From: a virus
Lineage: Duplodnaviria > Heunggongvirae > Uroviricota > Caudoviricetes
Length of the DNA stretch: 38,573 nt
IMG/VR virus record: IMGVR_UViG_2706794695_000013
Strand: one strand, 5' to 3'
Below, in pieces: positions 21,777 through 38,573 of this stretch. Under the pieces are notes generated by a model, which saw only the letters and a list, made by a program, of their open reading frames with translations, did not search any database and was not told the origin of the DNA. A program made the position numbers and the translations under genes. The stretch's first letter is position 1, and every line of letters begins with the position of its first letter.

Positions 21777-21879
21777 ACCCGCTCCAGAATGTTTTAAACA
21801 TGCATCTCGCGAACAACTTTAGGCAAACGGTGTTAGTGATGAACAAAAAACAATCAAAATCGACACCATAAAAACAAAA

Positions 21880-21907
21880 CCACTGTAATATCAATCTATT
21901 ACAGTGG
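21880..21907. repeat. Perfect 11-bp inverted repeat in the cos region (possible cosB / terminase binding element)
   Basis: ccactgtaata tcaatc tattacagtgg. Confidence 0.4.
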
Positions 21908-21942
21908 TGGTGATGACGAATGAAATTTCAAAAACTAGCCTT

Positions 21943-21970
21943 TTTCCGCGACGCTCCCGCCCCGTGGCAG
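21943..21970 (-). other. cos-like cohesive end site (cosN candidate)
   Basis: Minus strand reads GGGGCGGGAGCGTCGCGG, resembling the lambda left end GGGCGGCGACCTCGCGGG, about 185 nt upstream of the Nu1-like start. Confidence 0.4.
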
Positions 21971-23074: not shown

Positions 23075-23589
23075 CAGGCTAATGCGCTTTCCTGGTCACG
23101 ACGAATAACCTGTCCATAGCAGTTATTTGAACGTATGCGGCAATCGCGCCCACCATCTTTTATCCACCAGCGAATCGCCTCGCATGCACCTTTACGATCA
23201 CCAGCATTCAGCCGCTTATAAAACGTCGACGGAAAACACTTACCGGGGCCAATGTTATAGGGACAAAATGACGCGATACCCGCTTTTTGTGGCTCGGTCA
23301 GTGGTACTTTAATATTGCGCTCCACCCATGCCAGCGCCTTATCACGCTCAATGGCGTTGACCTGGTCGCATTTTTCCTTCGACAGTTTCATACCGGGAAA
23401 AACGGGTTTTCCATCCACCATCGTGGCACCCCGACAGATGGTCCAGATGCCGGACCCATCGCGGTATGCCGTTGTGTGGTTACCTTCTTTTTCATCCAGA
23501 AACTGGTCGAGAATATCAGGCGCGGGCGCACCGACGGCAATCAGTGCCAGAACGGCAGCCGACAGGCCGTATCTGATTTTTGCGTTCAT
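23056..23589 (-). CDS. R: Endolysin, T4-lysozyme-like (GH24) with N-terminal signal-arrest-release (SAR) segment
   Basis: N-terminal Ala/Gly-rich hydrophobic stretch [16 protein letters not shown]; catalytic E-x8-D-x5-T spacing in [16 protein letters not shown]. Confidence 0.85.
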
Positions 23590-23728
23590 GGATATTTATC
23601 AGGATTTATCGGTTTCTGCCCACGGACAGGTTTATCTGTTCCGGTCAGTGACTTAAGGTTGTGATTCCGGAGGAGTCTTCAGAGAACCAGTAATTCTTCC
23701 TGGTAGCTTTCCTTTGTAGGTTATCCAA

Positions 23729-23739
23729 NNNNNNNNNNN
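23729..23739. other. Assembly gap (11 N) inside the holin gene
   Basis: Run of N. Confidence 0.95.
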
Positions 23740-23811
23740 AAACCAGTACCCGGCACTACCTGCTGAGGTGCCATAGGCGACACCCGTTGTTAACTTATCC
23801 ATGGATTTCAT
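23740..23811 (-). CDS. S: Pinholin (phage 21 S21-type class II holin), N-terminal 24 codons only; remainder lost in N gap
   Basis: [24 protein letters not shown] matches S21/EssD-type holin N-terminus; sequence after the gap does not continue the holin. Confidence 0.7.
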
Positions 23812-23878
23812 AACCCCACCTCGCAGATGCGGGTGCTGTGTAATGGAAATAAAAAGGCCACCTGACGTGGCCACCAGA

Positions 23879-24931
23879 TTATTTCCCCACCAGCTCGTTT
23901 ATCTCTTTCACTGTCTGATTAAACCGCTCTGACTCAAGCTCAACACCTAAGGCCCGACGCCCCAGCGCCATTGCTGCTTTTATTGTGGAACCGGATCCCA
24001 TAAAAAAATCAGCAACCAGATCACCTGGTCGACTACTGGCATTGATTATTTGCCTGAGCATATCCGCCGGTTTCTCACACGGATGTTTCCCCGGGTAGAA
24101 CTGAACGGGTTTATGCATCCAGACATCGGTATAAGGCACGGAGACTGATACGGAGAAATAGCGCCGGAGAGATTTAAACTCATCCAGCAATTCAGAATAT
24201 TTACGATTCAGTGAATCATAAGATGCCACCAGCTGGTGGTGTGGTTGTTCCAGTTGTTGTTCCTGAAACTTCTCTGCCGCTATACGGGAAAACAGTGCCT
24301 GTAACTTCCGATAGTCAGCCTCATTCGGCAACTGCCACTGACTGGCACCAAACCAGTGGGAAACCATATTTTTCTTACCTGTGGCTTCGGCAATTTGTTT
24401 TGCCGTTATACCCAGTTCGGCACGAGCATCCCTGAAATACGATATCAGCGGTGCCATTATGTGCTGTTTGAGTTCCCTTTCTTTTGCCGCATAGCCGTCA
24501 CTTTTGCCGCGATATGGCCCCTGGTAATGTTCAGCAAACAGAACGCGCTCTGTGGCAGGAAAATATGCGCGCAGACTTTCTTTATTACACCCATTCCAAC
24601 GTCCGGACGGCTTCGCCCAGATGATATGGTTAAGCACGTTGAAACGTTCACGCATCATGATCTCAATATCAGATGCCAGGCGATGCCCACAGAACAGGTA
24701 AAGGCTTCCGGCAGGTTTCAACACCCGCCAGAACTGGGCCAGACAGTGGTCCAGCCACTTAAGGTAATCTTCGTCCCCTTTCCACTGATTGTCCCAACCG
24801 TTGGGTTTCACCTTGAAGTAAGGCGGATCGGTAACAATCAGGTCAATGGAATCATCAGGCAGGGACTGAATAAAATGCAGGCAATCAGCGTTGATTAAAT
24901 CAACACTGTTTATTTTTACAGTATTTTTCAT
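23879..24931 (-). CDS. DNA methyltransferase, beta-class N6-adenine/N4-cytosine type (orphan; no cognate nuclease seen)
   Basis: 350 aa; N-terminal DPPY motif (IVTDPPYF) and C-terminal AdoMet-binding FFMGSGST; directly upstream of the holin. Confidence 0.85.
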
Positions 24932-25081
24932 GGATCAGTAAGCGTAACTCTGGTAGGCTCACTCTGCTTTTGCGCTAAAGCAGTGGGCCGTGGTTCGCTT
25001 GTGACCAGTAAGCATGAGCGAATGGCTGGCAGGTGCTACCAACACCCACCAGCCGCCCATTTTCACAGCAGGAAACCGCCA

Positions 25082-25285
25082 TTACTGGCAGCGTCTGAAT
25101 TTATTCCCGTACCCGCCGTTATCCTTCGCCAGACCCGCCAGAACTAACTGAGTCAGTATTAACTGGCACCGGGCTTCGCTTACTCCGGTAGTTCTCGTCA
25201 TCATGCGTGGCGTTACCCACTTGTCAGCAGGTAAGAAATGAAGGACTGCGGCGGCGGTTTCTGTCATATCTTGCTGTTTTAGCAT
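25082..25285 (-). CDS. Hypothetical small protein (67 aa from ATG 25285)
   Basis: ORF between the methylase and the duplicated terminator; GAAGGG-type SD before the internal ATG; no recognisable family. Confidence 0.3.
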   Translation of the reverse strand: MLKQQDMTETAAAVLHFLPADKWVTPRMMTRTTGVSEARCQLILTQLVLAGLAKDNGGYGNKFRRCQ

Positions 25286-25406
25286 GTCTTTTTCCCTTCT
25301 GGTTAACATGACATACCAATAACTCTTGTCTAAAAAGCCAGCAAGATAAAAAGTCAGTATTCACGACCACCAGCGTGTTTACTGTACTGCACCAAGTTTA
25401 CGGGTA

Positions 25407-25431
25407 CAAAAAACCCGCTCAGTGGCGGGTT
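25407..25431 (-). terminator. Terminator-like hairpin, copy 1 of a duplicated element
   Basis: aaaaaacccgc tcagtg gcgggtt; near-identical to the copy at 26085-26111. Confidence 0.5.
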
Positions 25432-25508
25432 GCTATCACAGCTATATATTTACTTATTATGCCGTTACTAACATTTATCTTCGACATATAATCGAAAACA
25501 AGGTTTGC

Positions 25509-25934
25509 TTAAAACTCTGCTTTCATTTTATCCGGGAATTTTTTATTTGCAGCATAATAACTACCAAGTACATAAGCGTTCATTTGCTGCTCTACATCAA
25601 CCCGACATGCCGCACTAGAACAAGCTCCACTGATAAGCCCAAAAGAACTCCCTTTAGCAGAGAGATCAGCTTTGATTTCCTCTACAGTGTTTTTCCCCAT
25701 AGCAACTACACACCCTGTCACAATATATCTAGCTTTCACATCATCCATGCTAAGGATAGTAGTTTTCGCAATTTTGCTGTATCCATCATTTTTATAAACA
25801 TCCATGGCAAACGCACGGCAATCTGTATAATACGGACTTGCTTTAACTTGCGAATACTCAGGTAATTTCATACCTGCACAACCAACTAAACAAAAACCTA
25901 TCGCTGCTATTAATACCTTTTTCATTACAGTCAT
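25509..25934 (-). CDS. Lipoprotein of unknown function (AT-rich moron)
   Basis: Signal peptide with lipobox (MKKVLIAAIGFCLVGC); local GC content clearly below the flanking phage genes. Confidence 0.7.
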   Translation of the reverse strand: MTVMKKVLIAAIGFCLVGCAGMKLPEYSQVKASPYYTDCRAFAMDVYKNDGYSKIAKTTILSMDDVKARYIVTGCVVAMGKNTVEEIKADLSAKGSSFGLISGACSSAACRVDVEQQMNAYVLGSYYAANKKFPDKMKAEF

Positions 25935-26084
25935 AACCTAGAAGCATCATTGAAACTAATTTATTAAATAACCATCGAGTTTCTGGAATACAGACGTTAA
26001 CCATCTCTCCAAAATCTAAAAGATAATAAGAAAAAATGTTTAACGCACCAATCCATTTCATAGTTTCATGAGACATCAGGCACA

Positions 26085-26111
26085 AAAAACCCGCTCAGCG
26101 GCGGGTTTTTG
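26085..26111 (-). terminator. Bidirectional rho-independent terminator, candidate tR-prime downstream of Q
   Basis: aaaaaacccgc tcagcg gcgggttttt: GC stem flanked by A-run and T-run. Confidence 0.6.
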
Positions 26112-26153
26112 ACATTTACCAACGGTAGACATACAAGGCCCATCGTTGAGAAA

Positions 26154-26182
26154 ATCTTATCCATATTTTTTGAAAAATGCAA
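26154..26182 (-). promoter_or_regulatory. Candidate late promoter (PR-prime-like) between Q and the terminator
   Basis: On the minus strand TTGCAT, 17-nt spacer, TAAGAT; position is as expected for a lambdoid late promoter/qut region. Confidence 0.25.
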
Positions 26183-26213
26183 GTATCACGTCGACATCTT
26201 CGGCGAAAATTAT

Positions 26214-26966
26214 CTATCTTGTCACTTTTCTCAATTGCGATTCAGCATACGCTTCTTCCTGCCAGCACTTTGTAACCAGTTTATTAATAACGTCTGCATA
26301 TCCTTTGTACCACTGATAATCCGTCAGGTCCGGTACCAGTTTCTGGACATGATGCCGCGCCAGTGTGGTTGGTAAACGGCTAAACCGGTTGCCATTGCAA
26401 CGCCCACAAATCTTATAAACAGGCACACCATGAAGCCGGGTTCTTTTTTCATCCAGGACAATACCTTTACCCTTACACCCTCTGCACGCTGTGCTGACTT
26501 CTCCCTTACCATGGCAATGCTGACATAGTTCCTTCACCCACTCTTCCTTGATAACAGATTCCCCGCTTCTGGAGTGTTTCACCACTTCGCGCAATACATT
26601 ATGAAATCCAGTACCAGCACAATGCTCACAGCGAGCCTTACTTGCCGCAGACCTGGAATAATCAGCAAAGGCAAAATTCACAAGGTAAGGGATGATCTGT
26701 AACCGGGTTTCTTCACTCAATTTGTTCAATGTCGGGTTATCCAGTGCCATCGCGTAATTGAGCAGACCTTCAATCGCAAATTGAGGATCCTGAACACCAA
26801 CTTTTGCCAGGAATAAGGCAAACCCAAGCGGTGCTTTCGACTGCACCATCCCCTGCGCAGCCATCACATCCGTAATCGTTAAACCACCTGAGCCTGTCGC
26901 CGGTGCGTCATCGCTCAATTTTGGAGATTTTGGGGAGTAATATTTTGGTAAGGCTTCAAGGTTCAT
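26214..26966 (-). CDS. Late-gene antiterminator Q-like protein with DnaJ-type Cys-rich zinc finger
   Basis: From ATG 26966 (GGAG SD): MNLEALPKYYSPKSPK...; four CxxCxGxG-type repeats (CEHCAGTG, CQHCHGKG, CRGCKGKG, CGRCNGNR); last gene of the nin-type region before the late promoter and lysis genes. Confidence 0.55.
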   Translation of the reverse strand: MNLEALPKYYSPKSPKLSDDAPATGSGGLTITDVMAAQGMVQSKAPLGFALFLAKVGVQDPQFAIEGLLNYAMALDNPTLNKLSEETRLQIIPYLVNFAFADYSRSAASKARCEHCAGTGFHNVLREVVKHSRSGESVIKEEWVKELCQHCHGKGEVSTACRGCKGKGIVLDEKRTRLHGVPVYKICGRCNGNRFSRLPTTLARHHVQKLVPDLTDYQWYKGYADVINKLVTKCWQEEAYAESQLRKVTR

Positions 26967-26979
26967 GCTCGTTCTCCAC

Positions 26980-27975
26980 TTACGCCAATACGCCAATTGC
27001 CAGCGCACGATCGATAAAACGAAATATCAGCTCCAGCTGGGAGCCATACTTCTCTTCAAATGCCACGGTATCCGCATGCAGCTCGTCGTGATGCTTTCTG
27101 CACAAAGGCAACACAAAGAGGTCATGCGCTTTTGTACCCATTCCACCCTGACCGTGGCCTATCAGGTGGTGGGGATCATCAGCAGGCTTTCCACAACATG
27201 CACACGGCTGTGTCTTAACCCAGCGCGTGTACTTTTCATTAACCCAGCGGCGGCGTTTTGGGCGTAACATAAAAGACTCCGGCGACTCCGGATCCACTTT
27301 CAGCGCCAGCACCTTTTTTGCCTTATCCTGGATGATGCTGGTGGCAGGAACCGAAGGCACAAGGTCACTTTCCCGGGTGACAGACGGCACAACAGGCTTT
27401 GGTAATCTCAGTGCCTTACGGGCTGCACTTTCCGGTAAGGCATCCGCCAGGTCATTACGAATCAGCCACCAGCACAGTTCCGGCATTGTCACAACGTGAC
27501 TATCATCAAAACCGAGATCCCGACGCACAACAGACAACACCCAGCGGGCACAGTTATCCGTTGCCATTGATTCCAGCCGTTCCGTGAACTGATCGCGCAG
27601 CTGGTTATCGCAGTGCCAGCACAGACGGATTGCGCCCGGAGCGTGTCGCATTGTGGTCATGTTCTCGCTGTGCCAGTCGGAATGAGGCCACTGGCAGCCT
27701 TTTTCACGAAGTAACCAGCTTTCAAGACATTCCACGCCACCAGCACGACGGATCACTGCCTCATTGCGGAACACGGCCCGAACGGCAGGATCATCCGCCA
27801 GCGGTTGTGATGCCGCCGGAACGGCACCACTGGCGAAAGATGAATAACGTTCCGGCTCAGGCTCCAGCAGAACACGCCCCTGCATAAACAGGGGCATCAG
27901 CTCTGAACCTGGCCTGAACAATACGATCCCCATACGCGGGGCAATTTCAGGGGTCAGTAGTGCTCTCACGGTCAC
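26980..27975 (-). CDS. DUF968-type nin-region protein with C-terminal HNH-like Cys/His motif
   Basis: 331 aa; C-terminus PCACCGKPADDPHHLIGHG...CRKHHDELH. Confidence 0.55.
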   Translation of the reverse strand: MTVRALLTPEIAPRMGIVLFRPGSELMPLFMQGRVLLEPEPERYSSFASGAVPAASQPLADDPAVRAVFRNEAVIRRAGGVECLESWLLREKGCQWPHSDWHSENMTTMRHAPGAIRLCWHCDNQLRDQFTERLESMATDNCARWVLSVVRRDLGFDDSHVVTMPELCWWLIRNDLADALPESAARKALRLPKPVVPSVTRESDLVPSVPATSIIQDKAKKVLALKVDPESPESFMLRPKRRRWVNEKYTRWVKTQPCACCGKPADDPHHLIGHGQGGMGTKAHDLFVLPLCRKHHDELHADTVAFEEKYGSQLELIFRFIDRALAIGVLA

Positions 27976-27976
27976 C

Positions 27977-28786
27977 TCAATGAACGGTATCGAGCAGCTT
28001 TAACAGCTCAGGGAATCGGGATTCGAAGAAATGCGGCTGCGTCTCGCGCGGATTTGCAGGACTGGTGATGTTCTTGCCGAACATGCAGCCTTTCGCCGTC
28101 AGCGACCAGAATTTTTTGATGTTGTTAATCGCGGTACGGCTGTATCGTTCGCGTTGTTCAACGATCCCCAGCTTCACCATCTGGTGATATGCCTGATTAG
28201 CCGTCAGGCGGATACCATACTGCTTCAGCAGTGCACTCAGCGACAGCGTGGGGCGACTTGAGCCATCAGGCGCGTCAGCAGGAGCATCAATGGCATAGCG
28301 CGGTGCCAGATTCGGTAAGCCAACAGCCTCCTGAAGCTTCTGACAGGCTCCAAGCACTGATGAGTTAGACAGATTTAATTCCCGGCGCATAAAGTCCAGC
28401 AGGATCACGCCAGCCTGCATCTTGTCAGCAGCCTGTCCGGATAATTTTTCCGGTGCGCTGGTTACCATGTCGAAAGTACGGATCACCTTCAGATGGAATG
28501 ACGGGCTGATCCACATTGCATAGGCATACACCAGTTCTTTGCAGACATACGTCCCCTGGTTATTTCCGCCATTAATGACGCTAACTGGTTGATTTTGTTC
28601 CAGAGGCGGAATTCCACCCTCGGTGAAAAGTTGTTCAATCAATTCACAGGTTTGCTTATTGGAGAGCCAGTATTTCGGGCGGTTTTTTTGTTCTCCCCCG
28701 GCTGCCCTGTGCAGATCGTTCAGGCTGTAACGCCCATAAGCATCACGACGAACTTCAATACCATCAATGACCATCAGATTATTCAT
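27977..28786 (-). CDS. KilA-N domain protein (antirepressor-like)
   Basis: From ATG 28786 (AGGAG SD): MNNLMVIDGIEVRRDAYGRYSLNDLHRAAGGE... typical KilA-N N-terminus. Confidence 0.65.
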   Translation of the reverse strand: MNNLMVIDGIEVRRDAYGRYSLNDLHRAAGGEQKNRPKYWLSNKQTCELIEQLFTEGGIPPLEQNQPVSVINGGNNQGTYVCKELVYAYAMWISPSFHLKVIRTFDMVTSAPEKLSGQAADKMQAGVILLDFMRRELNLSNSSVLGACQKLQEAVGLPNLAPRYAIDAPADAPDGSSRPTLSLSALLKQYGIRLTANQAYHQMVKLGIVEQRERYSRTAINNIKKFWSLTAKGCMFGKNITSPANPRETQPHFFESRFPELLKLLDTVH

Positions 28787-28805
28787 ACTTCGTTTCTCCT
28801 CTTGA

Positions 28806-29195
28806 TCAGGCGGCTGCACCCGCCGGTTTCTCATACTTACTGATAGTGATCTCGACCTTCCCTTTCTGGATAACCGGTCCCCACTCCACCAGCATTCTTT
28901 TCACCTGGCTGTCGTCTTCCCACACCCCCGCGTGGGTCAGGGCGTCAAACAGCGCCTTGTTATAGTTGTCCAGATCGCGGATCCGGTTATCCGGAGGAAA
29001 CAACACGATCTCCACTGAAGCAGGTGCCGACGTTGGTTTTGGCAGACGACGTAACTGCTCAACTATTGCTGCGCACGCCGCGCTCTGAAATTTTCGCCCC
29101 GCCGCGCTTATCAGGCTCTTACCAGCAAATGCCCCTTTGTTGGGGTGTCGCCAGTACGTGTTCACGCTGGGCGGGAAAGGCAGGATCAGCTTCAT
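28806..29195 (-). CDS. rusA: Holliday junction resolvase RusA
   Basis: 129 aa; ...PPSVNTYWRH...DLDNYNKALFDALTHAGVWEDDSQV... matches the RusA family. Confidence 0.85.
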   Translation of the reverse strand: MKLILPFPPSVNTYWRHPNKGAFAGKSLISAAGRKFQSAACAAIVEQLRRLPKPTSAPASVEIVLFPPDNRIRDLDNYNKALFDALTHAGVWEDDSQVKRMLVEWGPVIQKGKVEITISKYEKPAGAAA

Positions 29196-29518
29196 ACTTT
29201 CAGGCCTCTCTCATGTAACCAGTGGGTTGCACGCAGCCTGGCGTTTTCCTCACCGGCAAGCAGTGAGCGGATAATCCCGACCGCCTCGCTGTCGTCGTCC
29301 TTCACCGCGGTATGAAGAGTGATACCCCGGGCCATGCCACGCTTTATCGTGATGACGCCTTTTTTCTCCAGTGCGCGAAGATGTTCCACCGCTGCATTCA
29401 CTGAACGGTATCCCAGCATGGTTGCCACCTCCTGATTGGTTGGCGGGAAGCCACGTTCTTTCTGGTAAGAAATCAGCATATCCAGCACCTGCTGCTGGCA
29501 TTGAGTTAACGTCGTCAT
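29192..29518 (-). CDS. LexA-type winged-helix DNA-binding protein (DNA-binding domain only)
   Basis: 108 aa; LTQCQQQVLDMLISYQKERGFPPTNQEVATMLGYRSVNAAVEHLRALEKKGVI resembles the LexA N-terminal domain. Confidence 0.55.
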   Translation of the reverse strand: MTTLTQCQQQVLDMLISYQKERGFPPTNQEVATMLGYRSVNAAVEHLRALEKKGVITIKRGMARGITLHTAVKDDDSEAVGIIRSLLAGEENARLRATHWLHERGLKV

Positions 29519-30168
29519 GCCGCCATCTCCCTGACCAGTTTTTCCGCCTGCTGGCGAACCTGCGCCAGAAACGCCTCACCACATGCCTCAAGTTCATCGC
29601 GCCCGATGTAGCTGATTGCCGGTCCCTTCCAGGTCTTGTCGAAAACAGCAATAGCACCAGCGAAGAAAGCGCCTGTCGGCACCTGCTTCTCGTCCTTCGG
29701 GATAAACCAGGCAGGCAGTTCAAAACCAATACGCCCGCGAATAAAAGCAATATGATCTGCATCTTCCGGCCACCACACTTCGCTGGTGGCAGCTTTGATC
29801 AGGAAAACATAGCGTCCGCCCTTATCACGCATGGCACTGGCATGTTTCATGATGTAACGCATGCCGGTGATGTATTGCCCTTCATGCTGACTGGCGCGGC
29901 TGTACGGGGGATTACCAAAGGCAGCACCTTTAAGCTCCGCAAGACGTTCAGACCAGTCATGCGCCAGCGCGTTGTCTTCCGCAGTGTAATAAGCGGCACA
30001 TTTGGCGTTATCACCATCAGTGAACAGATCCAGAACAAACGGGCCAAACAGGGTGTTAATTCCCCAGAAAATGTTATCCGGCGTGCGCCACTGATCGCCC
30101 ACTTCCTTCAGTTCATGGGCTGGTTTGTTCCGCAGCTCCACCAGCGCCTGGCAATATTTATTACTCAT
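29515..30168 (-). CDS. Phage Dam-type N6-adenine DNA methyltransferase
   Basis: From ATG 30168: MSNKYCQALVEL...; catalytic NPPY motif (AFGNPPYSRA). Confidence 0.8.
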   Translation of the reverse strand: MSNKYCQALVELRNKPAHELKEVGDQWRTPDNIFWGINTLFGPFVLDLFTDGDNAKCAAYYTAEDNALAHDWSERLAELKGAAFGNPPYSRASQHEGQYITGMRYIMKHASAMRDKGGRYVFLIKAATSEVWWPEDADHIAFIRGRIGFELPAWFIPKDEKQVPTGAFFAGAIAVFDKTWKGPAISYIGRDELEACGEAFLAQVRQQAEKLVREMAA

Positions 30169-30662
30169 TAAGCCCCCACGTAATTCCCTGACAGATACCA
30201 CTCTTCACCCGATGCAGCGCGCTTGCTGCTTTTCCGTAAGCACCGCTCACGACGCGCCAGAAAATTGTTTCGTTCTGGCTGGGAGTGGCTTTCACGGAAT
30301 GCCGCCATCCACACCGTTGCAGCACGACGGTATAAGCCCCTGGACTCCAGTTCTTCCGCCTGGCGGGTCAGGCACAAAATCACCCGGGGATCGTTAGTGC
30401 CGACATAGAAATTGCGCACAGGTCTGGTTTCACGAACTGGTTGTGGTTCCGGCTCCTGCGCTCTCTCAGTCAGGCGTGGGAAATGTCTGCGTGTATCTCC
30501 TTCATAACGGTGAGCCACACGCCCACTCTGACGTAACTTGCTTGCTGACTGCAGAACGCGCTGCCGTGAGTAACCTGCAAAAGCATCCGCAATGTCTCCG
30601 GAAGTACACCCCGGATGGGCTTCAATGAATTTCTGAACTTCATTCAAAAGACTCATGATCAC
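30168..30662 (-). CDS. PerC-family (Pch-like) transcriptional regulator with N-terminal extension
   Basis: C-terminal ELESRGLYRRAATVWMAAF fits the PerC signature L-E-x2-G-L-W/Y-R-R-A-A-x2-W; track start is GTG, ATG at about 30656. Confidence 0.5.
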   Translation of the reverse strand: MIMSLLNEVQKFIEAHPGCTSGDIADAFAGYSRQRVLQSASKLRQSGRVAHRYEGDTRRHFPRLTERAQEPEPQPVRETRPVRNFYVGTNDPRVILCLTRQAEELESRGLYRRAATVWMAAFRESHSQPERNNFLARRERCLRKSSKRAASGEEWYLSGNYVGA

Positions 30663-31477
30663 CCCCTGAATCCTGCCGGGATCTGGCTGTAGTCCACGTT
30701 GTCGTAACTGGCTTTGAAGTACGGGTCCTCGCGTCTGGCTGCAGATACCGCAGGAACTTCCCAGAATTCTTCGAAATGACGATCCGGACCAAAGAACGTG
30801 ACAGCCTGTTTCACAAATTGTGTGCCGCTGTTACCCATCGCAGATACCCATCCCGCGTAGCGTTTCACACCTTCCAGCATGGTTTCGGGGTTTACTCCCT
30901 CATTCAAACGGGCTTTCCAGGCTTTGAAGGCTGCAGATTTTGAATTGCCACCAGCACGTTTGGGATATGCCAGCCATGCCTGCTCAAACTCCGGAGAGTA
31001 TTCCGGTCGGTTTGAACGAACTCGCACGGACTCATCAACTGATGCACCAACAGCTATTGGTTCATTGACTGGTTCTTTGACTGGTTCAAAAGAGTGACTG
31101 GTTCTGGGTGAATCTCCTGCACTACCCCCTGGTGCAACTCCTGCACTACCTGGTGAATTTGCTGCACCAGATAGTGAATTATTTGCACTACCCCCTAGTG
31201 AATCTCCTGCACCATCCAGATGAAGGAGATAGATATTACTTGAGTTACCTTTTTCACCTTTCCGGGTGACTTTTTTTACCAGCCCGGACTCACAAAGGGC
31301 CGCAATATGATTCATCACAGAACGTTTGCTAATTTCGCACTGGTCAGCAATATGCTGGTAGCTGGGCCAGCACTCACCCTGATCGCTGGCATTATCAGCC
31401 AGCTTGATCAGAACCAGTTTTCGCAATGGATTACCCACTCGAATTTTCATCGCTTTAACCATCAGCTCCATACTCAT
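30659..31477 (-). CDS. Replication initiator, lambda O-like (HTH N-terminus, iterons inside the gene)
   Basis: 272 aa; central repetitive Gly/Ser/Ala linker is encoded by the iteron array, as in lambda O. Confidence 0.7.
   Translation of the reverse strand: MSMELMVKAMKIRVGNPLRKLVLIKLADNASDQGECWPSYQHIADQCEISKRSVMNHIAALCESGLVKKVTRKGEKGNSSNIYLLHLDGAGDSLGGSANNSLSGAANSPGSAGVAPGGSAGDSPRTSHSFEPVKEPVNEPIAVGASVDESVRVRSNRPEYSPEFEQAWLAYPKRAGGNSKSAAFKAWKARLNEGVNPETMLEGVKRYAGWVSAMGNSGTQFVKQAVTFFGPDRHFEEFWEVPAVSAARREDPYFKASYDNVDYSQIPAGFRG
31107..31217. repeat. Iteron array (candidate origin), about five imperfect ~22-bp direct repeats
   Basis: ggtgaatctcctgcactaccccct / ggtgcaactcctgcactacct / ggtgaatttgctgcaccagata / gtgaattatttgcactaccccct / agtgaatctcctgcaccatcc, followed by an AT-richer stretch. 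Confidence 0.6.
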
Positions 31478-31710
31478 GCTGCACCTCCGAGATGCTTCAT
31501 GTTTTTTCCGGAGCGAAAGGCTATAAGCGGCATACTGACGCGGTAATTACGGCCCAGCGGTTCACAAATCACCTTCTGGCATTCACGGTCAACCAGGCTA
31601 ACACGTAGAACATGCCCTGCAGGCGTGGTGTACCACTGCCCAACTGTAGGAATTGATATTTTTTTACGCTGAAGCAAACGGCAAATATTGAGGATCAACG
31701 GATTAAGCAT
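31474..31710 (-). CDS. Hypothetical protein, 78 aa
   Basis: GGAGG SD 8 nt upstream of the ATG; overlaps both neighbours by a few nt (coupled translation). Confidence 0.45.
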   Translation of the reverse strand: MLNPLILNICRLLQRKKISIPTVGQWYTTPAGHVLRVSLVDRECQKVICEPLGRNYRVSMPLIAFRSGKNMKHLGGAA

Positions 31711-32539
31711 GACGATGCCCTCCGCTGATATTCAGGAGACGGTGAATATGAAAATTAGCCTTATCCGCCAGACGAATACGTTCAGCTTGCAAGTTAAGAA
31801 GGGTTTCTACCAGAACCTGATGTGCCTGCGGATCCGAAAGAGTTACCTTGCGCAGAGCACGTAGTGCAGTTGTTACATAACTGAGTTTATGTAAGTCTTC
31901 ATCATTCAGACGAGTGAGGGCTGGGACAGTAGCCATGATGGCAGCCTCCTTGATCGGTGAAATACTTCCACCACCGGAAACGCCAATTTCGCTGGTGGTG
32001 AACTGAACGGGGTTGGCGTAACCGGTGATCAAGGAAACCGGCGCATCTTTCGATGCCCCCGCCCAGCCCACCATAACTTTGATGTGAGCAAATGCGGACG
32101 ATAAAAAAGACGCTGGCGCGTCATATATCGCCTTGATCAATTCCAGGACGCCAATCCCGGCACCCGCTTTATAAGGTGCCTGAACAGTGTAACGTCCCGG
32201 AATGGCAGAATCAATGTGCTGGTGGTCCTTCACACTCAACAAAATCACGCCTGAATTTCCACAAAGGACTAAAGCACTCATGCGGGTAGTCTTTGCGAAG
32301 ATAGATAACGCGCTGTGTTTCTGGCTCCCAACGAATAACATGAACATAAAGTCCTCTTCCGTCACGAAACCAGCGGTTAAGTTCCTGCACAACTCGCCCC
32401 CCACAGTCAGGTAAAGTTCTCTGTGGTTACTTACAGCCAGGTGATTTGGTAATCTGCATTCATGCCGTAACAACAGGTGTTCAGCGACGCTGACCACCAG
32501 CTGTTGCGACAAACGGTTATTTGCCGTTAAACTGTTCAT
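31703..32539 (-). CDS. Hypothetical protein, 278 aa
   Basis: GGAG SD upstream of the ATG; ATGA-type overlap with the upstream gene; no Walker motif or recognisable family. Confidence 0.5.
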   Translation of the reverse strand: MNSLTANNRLSQQLVVSVAEHLLLRHECRLPNHLAVSNHRELYLTVGGELCRNLTAGFVTEEDFMFMLFVGSQKHSALSIFAKTTRMSALVLCGNSGVILLSVKDHQHIDSAIPGRYTVQAPYKAGAGIGVLELIKAIYDAPASFLSSAFAHIKVMVGWAGASKDAPVSLITGYANPVQFTTSEIGVSGGGSISPIKEAAIMATVPALTRLNDEDLHKLSYVTTALRALRKVTLSDPQAHQVLVETLLNLQAERIRLADKANFHIHRLLNISGGHRHA

Positions 32540-33099
32540 GCGTTAGTTTCTCCACAGACACAAAACGCCACGACGCCCGGAGCTGCACACTCGCGGGCGT
32601 CACTCTTTTCTGGAGCGCAAAAGATTTTGTAGACCAGTGCTGCATGCTCCTGGAGCTTCGAAATTGACAGATACAACTCATCATTAATTGCTGTCTGCTC
32701 GTGTGGCTCCACTACCCCATCTTCGATTGCCGAACGAATCTGCTTTGAGTAACTCCCGATCTGTTCGATGACTTCCAGCAGGCGCTGGTTTATATCGGCG
32801 TTCTCTACTTCCTCAATTTCAGGAAGCGATACAAACACCCCACCAGCAGACTGTGCGACAGCATCCGCAATGTAGTGAGTGCCAGCCGCGCGCTGTAAAA
32901 TCATTGCCCATCCCAGCGGGAAAATCTGATCGCCATCTGCACGAAGGCGGTTGAATAAAGCGTTCTCTGTTACATCCAGCCACTCAGCAGCTTCAGCGTA
33001 ACCCCCCGGCAACGCCGCGATAGTTTTTCTGACAGCTTTCACGTACCACTCAGGCTGTTTTTCTACTTTCCAGTGATGCTTACCCACGGTTAGCCTCAT
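32536..33099 (-). CDS. Hypothetical early protein, 187 aa (possibly a CII/CP76-like regulator)
   Basis: First gene after cro in the early-right operon; acidic C-terminal half; family assignment is from memory only. Confidence 0.45.
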   Translation of the reverse strand: MRLTVGKHHWKVEKQPEWYVKAVRKTIAALPGGYAEAAEWLDVTENALFNRLRADGDQIFPLGWAMILQRAAGTHYIADAVAQSAGGVFVSLPEIEEVENADINQRLLEVIEQIGSYSKQIRSAIEDGVVEPHEQTAINDELYLSISKLQEHAALVYKIFCAPEKSDARECAAPGVVAFCVCGETNA

Positions 33100-33130
33100 C
33101 GTTCTGTGGTTAAAAATTGAAGGTGTTCTG

Positions 33131-33331
33131 TTAATCTTTCGGATAGATATCCGGTCTTAAGTCAGATTTCGTAATTGCACCTGACGTGCATTGCTCAAGT
33201 TTTTTAGCCAGCACAAAACTGGCTTTTTTATAACCATTGAAAACCAGCCGTAAGTAGCCTGGTGTTGAGCCAACTTTTCCGGCCAACTCACCCTGCTGTT
33301 CTTTGGTTAAAGAGTCCCAATACGCTTTCAT
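33131..33331 (-). CDS. Cro-like HTH repressor (66 aa)
   Basis: Internal ATG at 33331 with GGAGG upstream; HTH-like segment GELAGKVGSTPGYLRLVFNGYKK; divergent from the repressor gene. Confidence 0.7.
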   Translation of the reverse strand: MKAYWDSLTKEQQGELAGKVGSTPGYLRLVFNGYKKASFVLAKKLEQCTSGAITKSDLRPDIYPKD

Positions 33332-33334
33332 ACA

Positions 33335-33407
33335 ATATGTACCTCCGGTATACATATTACATGATTGAGATGAACCTTCAAGATACTTGTACCTTATCGG
33401 TACAAAG
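33335..33407. promoter_or_regulatory. OR-like operator region between cro and cI
   Basis: Two near-palindromes sharing the core TGTACC-N(3-5)-GGTACA: atatgtacctccggtatacatat and acttgtaccttatcggtacaaag. Confidence 0.5.
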
Positions 33408-33421
33408 GTTTTAATTTCTTT

Positions 33422-34096
33422 ATGAAAACAGTCCATGACATCCGGCGGTCTAACGCCAGAAAACTGAGAGATGGTGTTGGCGGGAATTCTTCCTTTGCCA
33501 CCATGATTGATCGCGAGCCAACCCAGACCAGCAGGTTTATGGGAGATGGTGCAACTAAAAATATCGGTGACAGCATGGCACGGCACATCGAAAAATGTTT
33601 CGACCTGCCTGTCGGATGGCTTGATCAAGAACACCAGACAACGAACATCACAAAAAAACCTGACGTTTCAATCACTAACAAACAAATAACGTTAGTCCCT
33701 GTCATATCATGGGTACAGGCCGGAGCATGGAAAGAAGTTGGCTATTCTGAGGTTGATTTGAGCACAGCAGAAACTTATCCCTGCCCTGTACCCTGTGGCG
33801 AAATGACTTATATCTTGCGGGTGATTGGTGATTCAATGATTGATGAGTACCGCCCGGGAGACATGATTTTTGTTGATCCTGAAGTCCCTGCCTGCCACGG
33901 TGACGACGTTATTGCATTGATGCACGATACAGGCGAAACCACCTTCAAGCGGTTGATAGAAGATGGAACACAGCGTTATCTCAAAGCATTAAACCCAAAC
34001 TGGCCTGAGCCTTACATTAAGATTAACGGTAATTGCTCTATAATTGGTACAGTGATTTTCTCAGGAAAACCAAGAAGATACATAATAAAGGCCTAA
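33422..34096 (+). CDS. CI-type repressor with C-terminal S24 (LexA-like) autopeptidase domain
   Basis: 224 aa; catalytic Ser in VIGDSM and Lys in TFKRL; N-terminal DNA-binding region; divergent from cro. Confidence 0.85.
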   Translation: MKTVHDIRRSNARKLRDGVGGNSSFATMIDREPTQTSRFMGDGATKNIGDSMARHIEKCFDLPVGWLDQEHQTTNITKKPDVSITNKQITLVPVISWVQAGAWKEVGYSEVDLSTAETYPCPVPCGEMTYILRVIGDSMIDEYRPGDMIFVDPEVPACHGDDVIALMHDTGETTFKRLIEDGTQRYLKALNPNWPEPYIKINGNCSIIGTVIFSGKPRRYIIKA

Positions 34097-34107
34097 TCAA
34101 TATTTAT

Positions 34108-34131
34108 AACCTGCTTCGGCAGGTTTTTTTA
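34108..34131 (+). terminator. Rho-independent terminator after the repressor gene
   Basis: acctgc ttcg gcaggt followed by TTTTTTT. Confidence 0.7.
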
Positions 34132-34134
34132 TAC

Positions 34135-34163
34135 TTGACAATGTACCTTTGGGATACATAATG
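34135..34163 (+). promoter_or_regulatory. PL-like promoter with overlapping OL-like operator
   Basis: TTGACA, 16-nt spacer, CATAAT; the spacer carries atgtacctttgggatacat, the same motif as the OR sites. Confidence 0.5.
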
Positions 34164-34782
34164 TATCTAAAAGAAACACAGCACAGGCAAGATTAAACAA
34201 AATTTGGTTGTAACACGGCGTATGGCACATGCGTCGTTAGCGGTCTGGGGACGTTAAAGGGGACAATCCACTCCTTGCTCGGGCAAACAAACCAGGTAGC
34301 CGGAATGTGCAAGTCAATGATGATGCTGATAAGACGCCTAACCAGCGTGGCGATTCGGTTTGACGCCTGGGAAGAGACCAGGGTGCAACGATGAGGACAT
34401 TTATGGAACCGCGACAAAGTGTGGTGCCGTAACTGGCTAAGTGCTCTCAGCGTTGTGGTGAATGCGCAGGCTGATGCGCGAAAGACATTGCAGCTAATGC
34501 GGAAAAGAGCTGTTCGGCGGGGCAATTAAACGCCCGTGAGAGTCTGAAATAACCGCAAGCCGGAGATCAGCACCGGTCACCACAACAGCCACTGCTTTGG
34601 CGGTACCAGTTTGTACACTTGCTTCCGGCTGGTACCGCTCTTTTTACAAAACAGAGAAGAGCATCACCGGACGACGGGCTCATAACCAAATCCATCCGGG
34701 CGGCTGCCACCGCAGGTGTTCTTCTCTGTTTTGTGGAGAAACCAACCGACCTTGCAGGGTCGATATGATTAGGAGCAGCAAA

Positions 34783-35145
34783 ATGGCTAGCGAACGCAGT
34801 ACTGATGTGCAGGCATTTATTGGGGAGCTGGACGGCGGCGTATTTGAAACCAAAATCGGCGCAGTTCTCAGTGAAGTCGCTTCCGGTGTGATGAACACGA
34901 AAACCAAAGGTAAGGTCTCACTCAACCTGGAAATCGAACCATTTGATGAGAACCGTGTGAAAATCAAACACAAACTCTCATATGTTCGCCCGACTAACCG
35001 CGGGAAAATTTCCGAAGAAGACACCACCGAAACGCCGATGTATGTCAATCGCGGTGGTCGCCTGACTATTCTGCAGGAAGACCAGGGACAATTACTGACT
35101 CTTGCCGGTGAACCTGACGGAAAACTCCGCGCAGCAGGTCATTAA
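34783..35145 (+). CDS. Hypothetical protein, 120 aa (YfdP-like by recollection)
   Basis: ATG at 34783 with AGGAG 7 nt upstream (MASERSTDVQAFIGELDGG...); track ORF starts at an upstream TTG. Confidence 0.55.
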   Translation: MASERSTDVQAFIGELDGGVFETKIGAVLSEVASGVMNTKTKGKVSLNLEIEPFDENRVKIKHKLSYVRPTNRGKISEEDTTETPMYVNRGGRLTILQEDQGQLLTLAGEPDGKLRAAGH

Positions 35146-35210
35146 TATCGTTCTTAATTAACCGATTATTTATCTCATCACTGAATATCTTTATATAGTG
35201 AGGACTTATT

Positions 35211-36035
35211 ATGTCTCAGAACTTAGACGCAACCGCAATTAATCAAATCCATGCCCTTATTTCTGCTCAGGGTGTTAATGAAATTATCAGTAAGATTGGT
35301 GCCGATGCTGTGGCATTGCCTGAGAATTTCCGCATTCATGATCTGGAAAAATTAAATTTAAATCGTTTCCGTTTCCGTGGTGCGCTTTCCACTGCCAGCA
35401 TCGATGACTTTACTCGTTATTCTAAAGATCTTGCAGATGAAGGCACCCGCTGCTTTATCGATGCTGATAATATGCGTGCCGTCAGTGTTCTTAACCTGGG
35501 TACTATTGATGAACCAGGTCACGCAGATAACACCGCCACTCTCAAACTGAAAAAGACAGCTCCGTTCTCTGCTCTGTTGTCTGTTAATGGCGAGCGTAAC
35601 TCCCAGAAGTCACTGGCAGAATGGATTGAAGACTGGGCCGACTACCTTGTGGGCTTTGATGCTAATGGTGACGCCATTCAGGCAACCAAAGCGGCTGCGG
35701 CGATCCGTAAAATCACAATTGAAGCGAACCAGACCGCTGATTTTGAAGATAATGACTTCAGCGGCAAACGCTCCCTGATGGAGTCTGTCGAAGCGAAGAC
35801 CAAAGACATTATGCCAGTGGCATTTGAATTTAAATGCGTTCCGTTTGAAGGTCTGAAAGAACGTCCGTTTAAATTACGCCTCAGCATTATCACTGGCGAT
35901 CGTCCTGTACTGGTTCTGCGCATTATTCAGCTGGAAGCGGTACAGGAAGAAATGGCTAACGAATTTCGTGATCTGCTTGTTGAGAAATTCAAAGACAGCA
36001 AAGTAGAAACCTTTATTGGTACTTTCACCGCCTGA
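35211..36035 (+). CDS. Hypothetical protein, 274 aa (YfdQ-like / DUF2303 by recollection)
   Basis: Complete [24 protein letters not shown]...; co-oriented and adjacent to the 120-aa gene. Confidence 0.55.
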
Positions 36036-36047
36036 TTTCATTACTGC

Positions 36048-36069
36048 AAATGCCCCTGCGGGGGCATTT
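36048..36069 (+). terminator. Strong hairpin after the 274-aa gene (terminator-like)
   Basis: aaatgcccc tgcg ggggcattt, perfect 9-bp stem. Confidence 0.4.
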
Positions 36070-36223
36070 ACGGAAGCGATAATTTTAACTATTGCCGCCC
36101 CTATAAAGAACCATTAAACAATAACGTGACGTAGCTATTGATAGTAAATGAAGCACTTGCAAAATAATTGCATTGCGTATATATACACACATGTGTTGTA
36201 TTACAGCGATAATGGTAAAGCAA

Positions 36224-37006
36224 ATGATTAACTCTGAAGCAATTGAGCAACTAATGTGGCTATGGTCCTTATTTGACATTAAATTCTTATCTATTCTTGC
36301 CGCTGCCTTCACTATATATTTTGGCGTGCAAAAAATATCAAAAAAGGTGACAGTGTCGTATTCAGCAAATGCAAGTAGAATATATGACATGCATATATCA
36401 ACCATAATCCTGAATAATAAAAGAGATAATGCAATTGCTATATCTTCAATCAATATGGAGGTTGAAGGTAAAGGGATACTACAAGTTATTAAATTTGACT
36501 CCCCTCTTCTTTTAAAGAACTATGATTCTTTAAAAGTTGAACCACCAAAATTTAGCAGCCTTTACAATAATGATGGCGTAGTTAAGTTAGATATTTCTGA
36601 TAAGTTTCATTTTTATATAATCACGACATCTGGAGATGAAATTAAATGTATTTCTGAAAATAAATATGTAGCACCAAACATGGAAAACAAAATAGCTACA
36701 GACATAAGAAAATTTAATGGCATTGTCTTAACAAACAGAATGTCTTATATTTTTTTCTATGCAAATGACAACGGAGAGAAATACTGCATAATAGATGTTT
36801 CATTGTTCATAAATGGTGACAACCCATTTCATTTTAATTTTTTAAAAGAAGATGAATTAAGAGATTTTTCTAGCATCCTTATTAGTTACGGATATCACCA
36901 ACAGTTTAAAAGTTATGCATTGTTTAAAATAGACAACCATCTTGCTCCTTCTTTGGTTTTAAATAAATCAATGATAGAAAATAATATTATTGAAATGAAT
37001 AAGTAA
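36224..37006 (+). CDS. Membrane-anchored protein of unknown function, AT-rich cassette (start uncertain, 36173-36224)
   Basis: N-terminal hydrophobic helix LMWLWSLFDIKFLSILAAAFTIYFGV then a soluble domain rich in N/K/I/F; GC far below the neighbours; possible own promoter TTGCAA-17-TATACA near 36157-36185. Confidence 0.6.
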   Translation: MINSEAIEQLMWLWSLFDIKFLSILAAAFTIYFGVQKISKKVTVSYSANASRIYDMHISTIILNNKRDNAIAISSINMEVEGKGILQVIKFDSPLLLKNYDSLKVEPPKFSSLYNNDGVVKLDISDKFHFYIITTSGDEIKCISENKYVAPNMENKIATDIRKFNGIVLTNRMSYIFFYANDNGEKYCIIDVSLFINGDNPFHFNFLKEDELRDFSSILISYGYHQQFKSYALFKIDNHLAPSLVLNKSMIENNIIEMNK

Positions 37007-37042
37007 CTCACCGGGTGCAGCCGGTTATGATGGAGAAATGAT

Positions 37043-37324
37043 ATGAATACCTTGTTTTTACTGATGGCTGAATTCAATACCCCAAACATTGAACTCTCAG
37101 CAGTTAGTCAAAAATACTTTGGTATGAGTCCAGCCACAGCAGAAGCAAAAGCAAACGCTTGTAAGTTGCCTGTACCTACATATCGCATCGGTACATCACA
37201 AAAAGCAAAACGTTGCATCAATATTCAGGATCTTGCGGAATACATAGACAAAAGACGAGAAGAAGGACGTATCGAGTGGGAACAGGTCAGAACAGGCAAA
37301 CAGAAGGGCAAAGAACATCACTAA
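37043..37324 (+). CDS. PrtN-like small DNA-binding protein (regulator or excisionase-like)
   Basis: 93 aa; MNTLFLLMAEFNTPNIELSAVSQKYFGMSPATAEAKANACKLPVPTYRIG... resembles the PrtN / phage regulatory family. Confidence 0.55.
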   Translation: MNTLFLLMAEFNTPNIELSAVSQKYFGMSPATAEAKANACKLPVPTYRIGTSQKAKRCINIQDLAEYIDKRREEGRIEWEQVRTGKQKGKEHH

Positions 37325-37326
37325 AG

Positions 37327-37353
37327 AAAAAACCCGCCTAAAGGCGGGTTTTC
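37327..37353. terminator. Bidirectional rho-independent terminator between convergent genes
   Basis: aaaaaa cccgcc taaa ggcggg tttt. Confidence 0.7.
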
Positions 37354-37371
37354 AAAAAGCACCAGCTATGA

Positions 37372-37545
37372 TCATGCTGCTTTGCGACGACGAAGCTTAC
37401 CCTGCTGCTCTTTACCAGAGACAGTAGCGTGAGTGAACGCATTAGGAGCAGCCTTCATCAGAACTTCAACAGCAGCACCCATACCTGCGAATGCTTTCAT
37501 TGTGTCGAACTTAACCTGTGGCTTGGTTGCTTTTTGATCTTCCAT
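37372..37545 (-). CDS. Small basic protein, 57 aa (below the ORF-track length cutoff)
   Basis: My manual translation: MEDQKATKPQVKFDTMKAFAGMGAAVEVLMKAAPNAFTHATVSGKEQQGKLRRRKAA; GGAG 6 nt upstream; ends at the bidirectional terminator. Confidence 0.4.
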   Translation of the reverse strand: MEDQKATKPQVKFDTMKAFAGMGAAVEVLMKAAPNAFTHATVSGKEQQGKLRRRKAA

Positions 37546-37584
37546 AGAAAACTCCAGAAGCTATACCGAAACAATTCCTGTTGT

Positions 37585-38004
37585 TTACTCATCATCAATA
37601 GATGATACGCAATATTTATTTTTAAATTTAAGGTTCTTTGGCGTAACTTCATCAGATATATCAAAACCGTCCAGAATTCTATTGAATGTAGCTTCTGGCA
37701 TATCATCATGAACGGAAATCTCACCCGATCGCTGCTTTCTAACCATGTTATCCACTCGCCAAATTATAGCTTCAGCGTAAACAACATAACTTGGATGCTT
37801 GATAAAGCGATGATCACCAGAATTCAAGACGCAAGACGGATCGTGGGGGACACCATCCTTGATACTAGAAATATTAACAACTAAAACACAATAACAATCG
37901 TTAACGGGGTAATAAACAGGATCATTACAAATCACATGAAGATGATTGCATGGCCCAGTTGGGGCAAGCACAGTTCCTTTCCTGTATGGCTGATAATCCG
38001 TCAT
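37585..38004 (-). CDS. Hypothetical protein, 139 aa, translationally coupled to the Panacea-like gene (candidate toxin)
   Basis: ATGA overlap with the upstream stop at 38001-38004; Cys/His-containing MTDYQPYRKGTVLAPTGPCNHLHVICNDP...; no recognisable family. Confidence 0.55.
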   Translation of the reverse strand: MTDYQPYRKGTVLAPTGPCNHLHVICNDPVYYPVNDCYCVLVVNISSIKDGVPHDPSCVLNSGDHRFIKHPSYVVYAEAIIWRVDNMVRKQRSGEISVHDDMPEATFNRILDGFDISDEVTPKNLKFKNKYCVSSIDDE

Positions 38005-38573
38005 GATAATTGCAAAGAAAATTCCTTAAGTTTCTGAGATTCTTCCATTTTGCCAATTATACGATTAGCCTCATCCTCGCTTTTACCCTCACTGATCAGC
38101 ATTTCTTTCAGGTCTATAGGCTTACGAGAATTGCCAGGATTGTGCCACTCTGGACAAACGCTTTCTAAATGCGTCATGTTTGCGAGATCAAATCGGTTCA
38201 TATGCCCATACAGAGAATAGATTTCATCTAAAATCCGGATATCTGCACGGCTCAACTCATCAAAGACCTCGTCTGCATCCATTTCCCTCGGATCTGAACG
38301 CAACAACACATCATGCCCGTTCGTCTCTATCAGGTTGTACCAGTAGTCACCAATACCTTCAGCCTTACCACGAATCAAGTTCAGCGTATTCGACATGACT
38401 GGACCAAATTTCATAGAGTAAAGGCTATCTTCGCCGATCATCCTGCCATGCTTCAAAATCGACTTGCGGTTAGACAGATAGAGCAGCTTCATCAATTTCA
38501 GATATGCCATGCGCCCACCTCGCTTAAGAAGTAGGTATGCAGCCATTTGAGCTACTTTTTCTTCGCAAAACAT
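38001..38573 (-). CDS. Panacea-domain (DUF4065, SocA/GepA-like) protein, candidate antitoxin; N-terminus may extend beyond the window
   Basis: VAQMAAYLLLKRGGRMAYLKLMKLLYLSNRK...SMKFGPVMSNTLNLI fits the Panacea pattern (T-x-LKL-x-KLLY ... F-x-A-x2-GPV); ORF begins at the last base of the window. Confidence 0.6.
   Translation of the reverse strand: MFCEEKVAQMAAYLLLKRGGRMAYLKLMKLLYLSNRKSILKHGRMIGEDSLYSMKFGPVMSNTLNLIRGKAEGIGDYWYNLIETNGHDVLLRSDPREMDADEVFDELSRADIRILDEIYSLYGHMNRFDLANMTHLESVCPEWHNPGNSRKPIDLKEMLISEGKSEDEANRIIGKMEESQKLKEFSLQLS

Follow-up and report, generated by a model that had tools for sequence, protein, structure and literature searches.

The yfdP-yfdQ gene pair of a lambda-like prophage: a candidate repressor-controlled, early-lytic two-protein module

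The two genes at positions 34783-36035 of IMG/VR virus record IMGVR_UViG_2706794695_000013 (the window, that is, the whole stretch of 38,573 nucleotides (nt) analysed here) are yfdP and yfdQ. This pair is already named and catalogued and is uncharacterised; few other phage genes of unknown function are as common. We tentatively favour the reading that they form an early-lytic, repressor-controlled and obligate two-protein module acting in the sphere of replication and DNA transactions. The transcript of the cI-type repressor gene would end at an intrinsic terminator, and a strong promoter bearing repressor operators would start a new transcript that runs through a structured leader of 620 nt into yfdP and yfdQ. 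The pair would thus be silent in the lysogen and switched on early after induction or infection. YfdP and YfdQ, both predicted to be soluble, may act jointly as a high-order complex on the replisome or on replication/repair intermediates during lytic growth. The purpose could be takeover of host replication, or replication support for a phage whose own replication genes are limited to an initiator of the O type. An early-lytic placement in a replication/recombination neighbourhood shifts the focus from lysogen defence to phage replication and takeover of the host replisome. The pair also bears on the unexplained biology of lambdoid phages without a recombination (Rec) module and a helicase loader.

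The organization of the DNA upstream of the pair carries the argument for repressor control. The cI-type gene is divergent from a cro-like gene and from a CII (CP76)-like gene. The initial annotation rightly placed the pair downstream of the immunity region, although 686 nt of non-coding DNA separate the end of cI (34096) from the start of yfdP. The stem of an intrinsic terminator (34108-34125) begins eleven bases past the cI stop codon, and a pL-like promoter (34135-34162) starts nine bases after that stem. It matches 11 of the 12 consensus positions and has the top sigma-70 score in 33000-38573. Its spacer contains ATGTACCTTTGGGATACAT, a copy of the palindrome TGTACC-N5-GGTACA, and the operator copies at the promoter occupy 34142-34158 (one mismatch) and 34162-34178 (three mismatches). 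When the whole window is scanned for this palindrome with at most two mismatches, three of the four matches fall at the cI/cro intergenic region or at the pL-like promoter. A diverged relative (L097) has another palindrome, TTAGGCTTAGCCTAA, found at OR and within a promoter about 500 nt 5' of yfdP, and a further relative (L156) has a promoter comparable to the pL-like one. The annotation of phage Ayreon marks a terminator and a promoter at positions equivalent to 34108-34131 and 34135-34162. The order cI, terminator, OL/pL is that of lambda. With a terminator after cI and an operator-bearing promoter next to it, the pair would therefore head a repressor-controlled early-left (pL-type) operon; yfdP and yfdQ have been assigned to the early-left operon in the literature as well (PMC12315714). 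Silence in the lysogen and early expression are what a repressor-controlled promoter feeding yfdPQ leads one to expect, and we conclude from this arrangement of sites that the two genes are probably kept off by the repressor in the lysogen and turned on at an early stage of the lytic cycle.

The leader of 620 nt between this promoter and yfdP contains no credible gene and folds better than shuffled versions of itself (z = -3.56). Its final 185 nt comprise, in order, a hairpin with a T run, a long hairpin, a small hairpin and the ribosome-binding site (Table 1). This order is kept 5' of yfdP in nine diverged lambdoid yfdQ clusters, whose stem sequences differ. The long hairpin is the sole perfect inverted repeat of at least 12 bp with a loop of 20-90 nt in the window. 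RNAalifold recovers a 14-bp stem from a 15-sequence alignment, with compensatory changes in 10 of the 14 pairs (pair count); 90% of cells are paired compared with 39-52% when the partners are slid, and none of 500 shuffles reaches the observed covariation score. G-U pairs are confined to the + strand, a sign that the element belongs to the sense transcript as RNA. The long hairpin may serve as an attenuator, as an antiterminator or, like the hairpin of the lambda N leader, as a site for RNase III.

To get beyond the internal terminator, transcription would probably have to be antiterminated or the RNA processed. N homologues are absent from this phage type, for which a put-like mechanism of antitermination has been proposed (PMC12315714). 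However, an antiterminator RNA of the HK022 put type was rejected for the window, where neither similarity to put nor paired pL/pR copies occur: compared with the HK022 pL region the leader shows no similarity in sequence, and it occurs in the window only once, with no putR-like counterpart. The lambda N leader (nutL and an RNase III hairpin) and HK022 putL likewise place structured RNA between pL and the first early-left gene, but the leader of the window is much longer than either and includes a terminator-like hairpin. No tRNA genes were found in the longer leaders of relatives. The leader RNA elements beside yfdPQ appear to be undescribed. Together with the unclassified RNA further upstream (see below) they constitute testable regulatory elements, neither of which matches Rfam. 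The loop of the first hairpin carries in most relatives a common motif, GATAATGTTCTG, that is not found in the window.

The identity of the two proteins is clear. Both open reading frames (ORFs), of 120 and 274 amino acids (aa), are present on the + strand as initially annotated, and their proposed resemblance to YfdP and YfdQ (DUF2303) of the CPS-53 prophage is borne out by sequence and profile comparison. YfdP is identical to b2359 of K-12 MG1655 CPS-53 at 119 of 120 residues and YfdQ to b2360 at 272 of 274 (99% in both cases). YfdQ is an end-to-end member of Pfam DUF2303 (PF10065; 311 bits against a gathering cut-off of 26.6, E=7.9e-93), its residues 7-272 aligning to positions 2-269 of the 269 in the model. 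YfdP falls into PHROG 204 (E=1.2e-49) and YfdQ into PHROG 210, both of unknown function. Homologues of YfdP bear the precomputed Pfam family PF27127; YfdP itself had no match in the Pfam copy searched, which does not contain PF27127, and a search of NCBIfam gave no match for either protein.

The yfdP-containing ORF begins, at its maximum length, at TTG 34597 in the mechanical ORF list. ATG 34783 is preferred as the start because AGGAG (34771-34775) precedes it by 8 nt and because the product that PGAP annotates as YfdP from this ATG in identical E. coli chromosomes is exactly the 120-aa protein. The extended 182-aa form that starts at TTG 34597 was rejected as a gene: its frame overlaps the compensatory-change hairpin, and it lacks a ribosome-binding site. 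The ATG of yfdQ (35211) has GAGG upstream as a ribosome-binding site, and 65 nt separate the two genes.

A 2.2-kb segment containing the pair is widespread. Of 5426 complete E. coli genomes, 3182 (~59%) have DNA that matches it, as do 97 phage records; the segment is present in phages cdtI, mEp460, Ayreon, 2H10 and SfV and in Stx2c phages. A hairpin 3' of yfdQ probably marks the end of the conserved block, and homology to other phages stops at about 36085. In K-12 CPS-53 (KpLE1) the two proteins have the same lengths and the genes the same 65-nt spacing. However, this prophage is decayed: its similarity to the window (L293 5380-5612) begins only ~25 nt 5' of the yfdP ATG, and it lacks the cI gene, the pL promoter and the structured leader that the window has. 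Downstream of the pair CPS-53 retains yfdR, yfdS and yfdT, where the window has a gene of low GC content.

This gene (36173-37006, + strand) lies between the yfdQ hairpin and the excisionase gene. It has 29% GC compared with a window average of 51% and takes the place of the yfdR of most relatives. Its product carries one N-terminal hydrophobic helix and belongs to PHROG 14996 (unknown function); no Pfam or PADLOC match was obtained. It has weak promoter-like sites of its own, and a moron or a function expressed in the lysogen is more plausibly sought in this gene than in yfdPQ.

YfdP and YfdQ occur together. All 167 loci with a YfdQ relative have a YfdP-profile match at a distance of 20-80 nt upstream of YfdQ and on its strand; these loci correspond to 15 YfdQ clusters at 90% identity. 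The first scan of viral contigs with the YfdQ alignment returned only copies at least 99% identical, and the diversity comes from a second alignment and tblastn. The YfdP-profile hidden Markov model (HMM) confirmed the pair in phages VvAW1, 64E30.1, Usme and ArgO145 (E=1e-25 to 3e-52). In the Vibrio podophages VvAW1 and 64E30.1 it adjoins or lies near the gene for a single-stranded DNA-binding protein (SSB), close to a DEDD/DnaQ-like (epsilon-type) exonuclease gene. In the Stx phage ArgO145 it directly follows the genes for SSB, exonuclease, RecT and Gam, while in the Xylella phage Usme it shares one operon with recombinase, exonuclease and SSB genes. Its presence in Vibrio and Xylella phages indicates that the module is not specific to lysogeny and that its neighbours are DNA-metabolism genes. 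The comparison thus shows an obligate two-gene module, found also in non-lambdoid Vibrio and Xylella/Xanthomonas phages. The closest described counterparts in an early-left operon are the yfdQ/yfdP homologues sb36/sb37 of ST64B, gp38/gp39 of LLS and gp23/gp24 of ArgO145, whose YfdQ proteins are 52-58% identical to that of the window. A gene for a YfdR-like HD phosphohydrolase usually comes next in these phages, and it is directly 3' of the pair in 10 of the 15 clusters, where a cI-type repressor gene precedes the pair.

The AlphaFold2 (AF2) models of YfdP and YfdQ are of moderate confidence (pLDDT, the predicted local distance difference test score, 79.6 each). YfdQ is modelled as an alpha/beta protein with a loop (residues 172-198) that is predicted to be disordered and is nonetheless conserved in sequence. 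The YfdP model combines a single long helix with a three-stranded sheet and has a C-terminal tail that is flexible but highly conserved. Neither contains a transmembrane segment, the top 19-residue Kyte-Doolittle means of the pair being 1.00 and 1.14. YfdQ is acidic (isoelectric point ~4.9). Its homologue PDB 9o7m ('YfdQ Protein', 36 chains; E=9e-45, residues 16-273 aligned, ~40% identity) has nearly the sequence of the YfdQ of Xylella phage Usme, and its 36 chains indicate that the YfdQ family forms a large assembly. By sequence, 9o7m is the sole PDB match to YfdQ, and the PDB has no YfdP-like chain. Foldseek matched neither model to a known fold in a library dated 2026-04-08, which lacks 9o7m; a literature search on 9O7M found nothing relevant.

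The YfdQ family comprises 1841 representative clusters, with lengths of 264-288 aa. Among the 150 best representatives, 143 are 262-290 aa long and none is a fusion; the window protein, with its single domain and 274 aa, conforms to this. In a set of 144 representatives (median identity to the window protein 39%), residues E46, R56, T61, Y70, H104, Q132, E140, D141, R166 and R223 are at least 90% conserved, and all are present in the protein of the window. This pattern would fit a catalytic or ligand-binding site. The tail of YfdP carries the motif Q-G-[QN]-[LMI]-[FL] in 94 of 102 distinct sequences, compared with 2% of background 40-aa windows. Motifs that bind the beta sliding clamp include QADMF, QLGLF and QMSLL. 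The resemblance of the YfdP tail to them is a lead only; YfdP may dock by this conserved flexible C-terminal tail, QGQL[F/L].

A more specific form of the module can be drawn from these features, and we regard it as improbable in all its parts together. Here the YfdP tail would bind the beta clamp of the host and tether a large YfdQ multimer, with a conserved site of His, Glu, Asp and Arg residues, to replication forks or DNA ends. Lambdoid phages that encode only O, lack Rec functions and are rich in Chi sites would in this way replicate with the host machinery; a new cis-acting leader RNA would gate expression, and an unclassified RNA of ~250 nt would lie upstream of it.

The phage itself is of the kind to which such a role would apply. 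The prophage in the window is that of a lambda-like siphovirus (mEp460/cdtI type), with the late genes drawn on the minus strand. It fits the 'LLS functional type' in its lack of a Rec module, in having an O-like gene as the only replication gene and in its many Chi sites. No Rec module was found in the window, and the early-right operon (23000-31500, minus strand) includes only an O-like initiator gene (30659-31477), with neither a helicase nor a helicase loader. Chi sites (GCTGGTGG) number 18 where 1.9 are expected. All of them lie within 21132-32847, a dense cluster of 11.7 kb located between the cos/lysis end and the immunity region, and 13 of the 18 are on the minus strand.

Published experiments also concern these genes. 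YfdR binds domain I of DnaA, and deletion of yfdQ in K-12 causes a weak sensitivity to methyl methanesulfonate (MMS) and H2O2 (PMC4776307). In BW25113, yfdQ affects the production of another phage (preprint).

Several points weigh against an early replication module. The gene yfdR is not found in the window. A terminator-like hairpin stands between the promoter and yfdP, and pL-driven expression is something that we infer. The clamp-like motif of YfdP is a five-residue pattern, degenerate in the homologues of Vibrio phage 64E30.1 and Xylella phage Usme. In K-12, yfdP is not needed for the multicopy phenotype, which the authors concede may be an artefact of overexpression (PMC4776307). Finally, gp10 of Burkholderia phage JC1, a DUF2303 protein, was found in purified virions, which a role at the replisome only does not predict; in the speculation of its authors, the protein may be associated with DNA ends or protect them (PMC9144972).

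An early function in anti-defence or DNA protection, in which the pair would neutralise a host nuclease or immunity system or would coat or cap phage DNA as it enters or replicates, is in our view unlikely, even though several features agree with it. The start of the early-left operon often holds anti-restriction and anti-RecBCD genes, such as lambda ral and gam and P22 abc, and this is the place that yfdPQ occupy. T4 gp2 provides an example of a protein that caps DNA ends, and the virion location of JC1 gp10, with the DNA-end protection proposed for it, points in the same direction. YfdQ is acidic and multimeric, as are many protein inhibitors and DNA mimics, and the family is widespread and mobile among unrelated phages. 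However, the pair bears no likeness to any known anti-defence fold, and anti-defence genes are usually patchy singletons rather than a syntenic pair of constant length beside SSB and exonuclease genes. Moreover, LLS, which carries yfdP/yfdQ, is placed among phages in which a RecBCD inhibitor cannot be recognised, and RecBCD helps it to grow (PMC12315714). This makes RecBCD an unlikely target.

It is also quite improbable that the pair supplies an unrecognised function in homologous recombination, of annealing or exonuclease-like type, in place of the missing Rec module. The absence of such a module, the excess of Chi sites, the position of the pair in the region of lambda exo, bet and gam, and the combination of conserved His, Glu, Asp and Arg residues with multimerisation, as in strand-annealing proteins, would be in line with this. 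However, a complete RecT/exonuclease/SSB set accompanies the pair in Usme and in ArgO145, the latter differing from the window in this respect. Neither protein has sequence or fold similarity to the lambdoid Rec proteins (Red-beta/RecT/Erf/Sak4, Exo, Gam/Abc2), and no recombination or excision function could be assigned to the pair. A role in recombination has been argued to be unlikely because ArgO145 has the pair besides a full Rec module, and no function is known for yfdP/yfdQ (PMC12315714).

The initial annotation had proposed exclusion or defence genes expressed in the lysogen, in the slot of lambda rexAB or of early-left accessory genes. The early-left part of this placement agrees with the pL-type promoter upstream, while the rexAB part finds no support. 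In lambda, rexAB are transcribed together with cI and precede both the terminator and OL/pL. The pair shares with rexA-rexB the orientation of the repressor gene and a place at its cI-distal side, but unlike them it lies beyond both the terminator and an operator-bearing promoter. A rexAB-like module is thus highly improbable, despite the retention of the pair in the degraded CPS-53, perhaps a sign that the host profits from it, and the weak stress sensitivity of the yfdQ deletion, since no PADLOC model matched at E<=0.01, sequence similarity to rexAB is absent, no membrane segment that could make a RexB-like component is present in either protein, the pair lies inside replication modules of Vibrio and Xylella phages, and CPS-53 has lost the whole cI/pL/leader region.

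Table 1. Coordinates of the yfdPQ genes and of the surrounding regulatory elements in the window.
Feature	Coordinates	Strand	Evidence
OR-type operators TGTACC-N5-GGTACA between cI and cro	33338..33404	.	perfect copy 33388-33404; copy with 2 mismatches 33338-33354
cI-type repressor, left boundary of the module	33422..34096	+	Peptidase_S24 E=1.5e-26; ymfK/LexA family annotation in identical E. coli records
Intrinsic terminator, 7-bp stem, 4-nt loop, T7 run	34108..34131	+	sequence; Ayreon terminator annotation
pL-like promoter TTGACA-16-CATAAT (34135-34162) with overlapping operators	34135..34178	+	consensus scan; operator repeats; Ayreon promoter annotation
Module A, candidate structured non-coding RNA	34210..34460	+	similarity to tRNA-flanking DNA; consensus structure
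Module B, non-coding block	34440..34590	+	similarity to tRNA-adjacent phage DNA
Terminator-like hairpin GGCGGTACCAG / CTGGTACCGC, 19-nt loop, then CTTTTT	34599..34645	+	sequence; equivalent in diverged clusters
Long hairpin, 15 perfect bp and 4 more, 46-nt internal region	34646..34734	+	inverted-repeat scan; conserved structure
Small hairpin CGACC/GGTCG (34747-34762) and Shine-Dalgarno AGGAG (34771-34775)	34747..34775	+	sequence
yfdP, 120 aa	34783..35145	+	K-12 YfdP match; PHROG 204; AF2 model
yfdQ, 274 aa, DUF2303	35211..36035	+	Pfam; K-12 YfdQ match; PHROG 210; PDB 9o7m homologue
Hairpin ATGCCCC-TGCG-GGGGCAT with weak T tract, 3' of yfdQ	36050..36069	+	sequence; Ayreon terminator annotation at the same place

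The upstream part of the leader is composed of two modules, A and B, that recur next to tRNA genes in other phages. Module A is 79-82% identical to intergenic DNA flanking tRNA genes in P1 and in the epsilon15-like Uetakevirus PAS61. The P1 copy starts directly after the CCA end of a tRNA-Met(CAT) gene, 5' of ban, and the PAS61 copy extends precisely up to the point where a tRNA-Arg gene begins. A consensus structure of 50 pairs is supported by seventy distinct copies, which derive from only about four lineages, with 97.8% of cells paired compared with 33-47% when the partners are slid and with compensatory changes in two helices. An Rfam search of the leader at E<=5 gave only sub-threshold matches, all at the cI terminator region, and ARAGORN found neither a tRNA nor a tmRNA in it. 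Module A may therefore be considered a candidate for a new, unclassified structured RNA. A 39-aa ORF within it (34275-34394) was rejected as a gene: it is broken or shifted in length in the P1 and PAS61 homologues by indels that are not multiples of three.

Module B is ~96% identical to DNA from two other phages: DNA 5' of tRNA-Ser in IME207, a Shuimuvirus that infects Klebsiella, and DNA 3' of tRNA-Thr in the P1-like JL22. Many phages of Klebsiella, Erwinia and Salmonella share its core of 40 nt (34440-34481) at ~90% identity, and this core is also found in the late-operon leader of HK620, between qut and tR'.

Other regions of the window include several further elements. The supplied sequence contains runs of N, masked or unresolved, at 1445-1694 (250), 8662-8722 (61) and 23729-23739 (11). 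The early-right operon also carries genes for RusA, an HNH endonuclease and a Q-like antiterminator, and two DNA-methyltransferase-like genes. Two RNA matches lie side by side in this operon, both at the Rfam gathering level: the C4 antisense RNA (31991-32078, minus strand, 82 bits) and isrK (32103-32179, minus strand, 64 bits). They are located 5' of, or overlap, an ORF of the Ash family (31703-32539). This arrangement looks like a P1 immI-like, antisense-controlled antirepressor module in a lambdoid phage.

No integrase gene was found within the window. The PrtN/excisionase-like gene (37043-37353; PHROG 1300, excisionase) is followed by a strong 11-bp hairpin (37328-37353). At the end of the prophage, two genes on the minus strand (37585-38004 and 38001-38573) overlap by 4 nt. 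The upstream one, a 190-aa ORF that extends to the last base of the window, contains a Panacea/SocA-like antitoxin domain (E=1.8e-18), while the downstream one encodes a protein of 139 aa. These two genes are probably a toxin-antitoxin pair.

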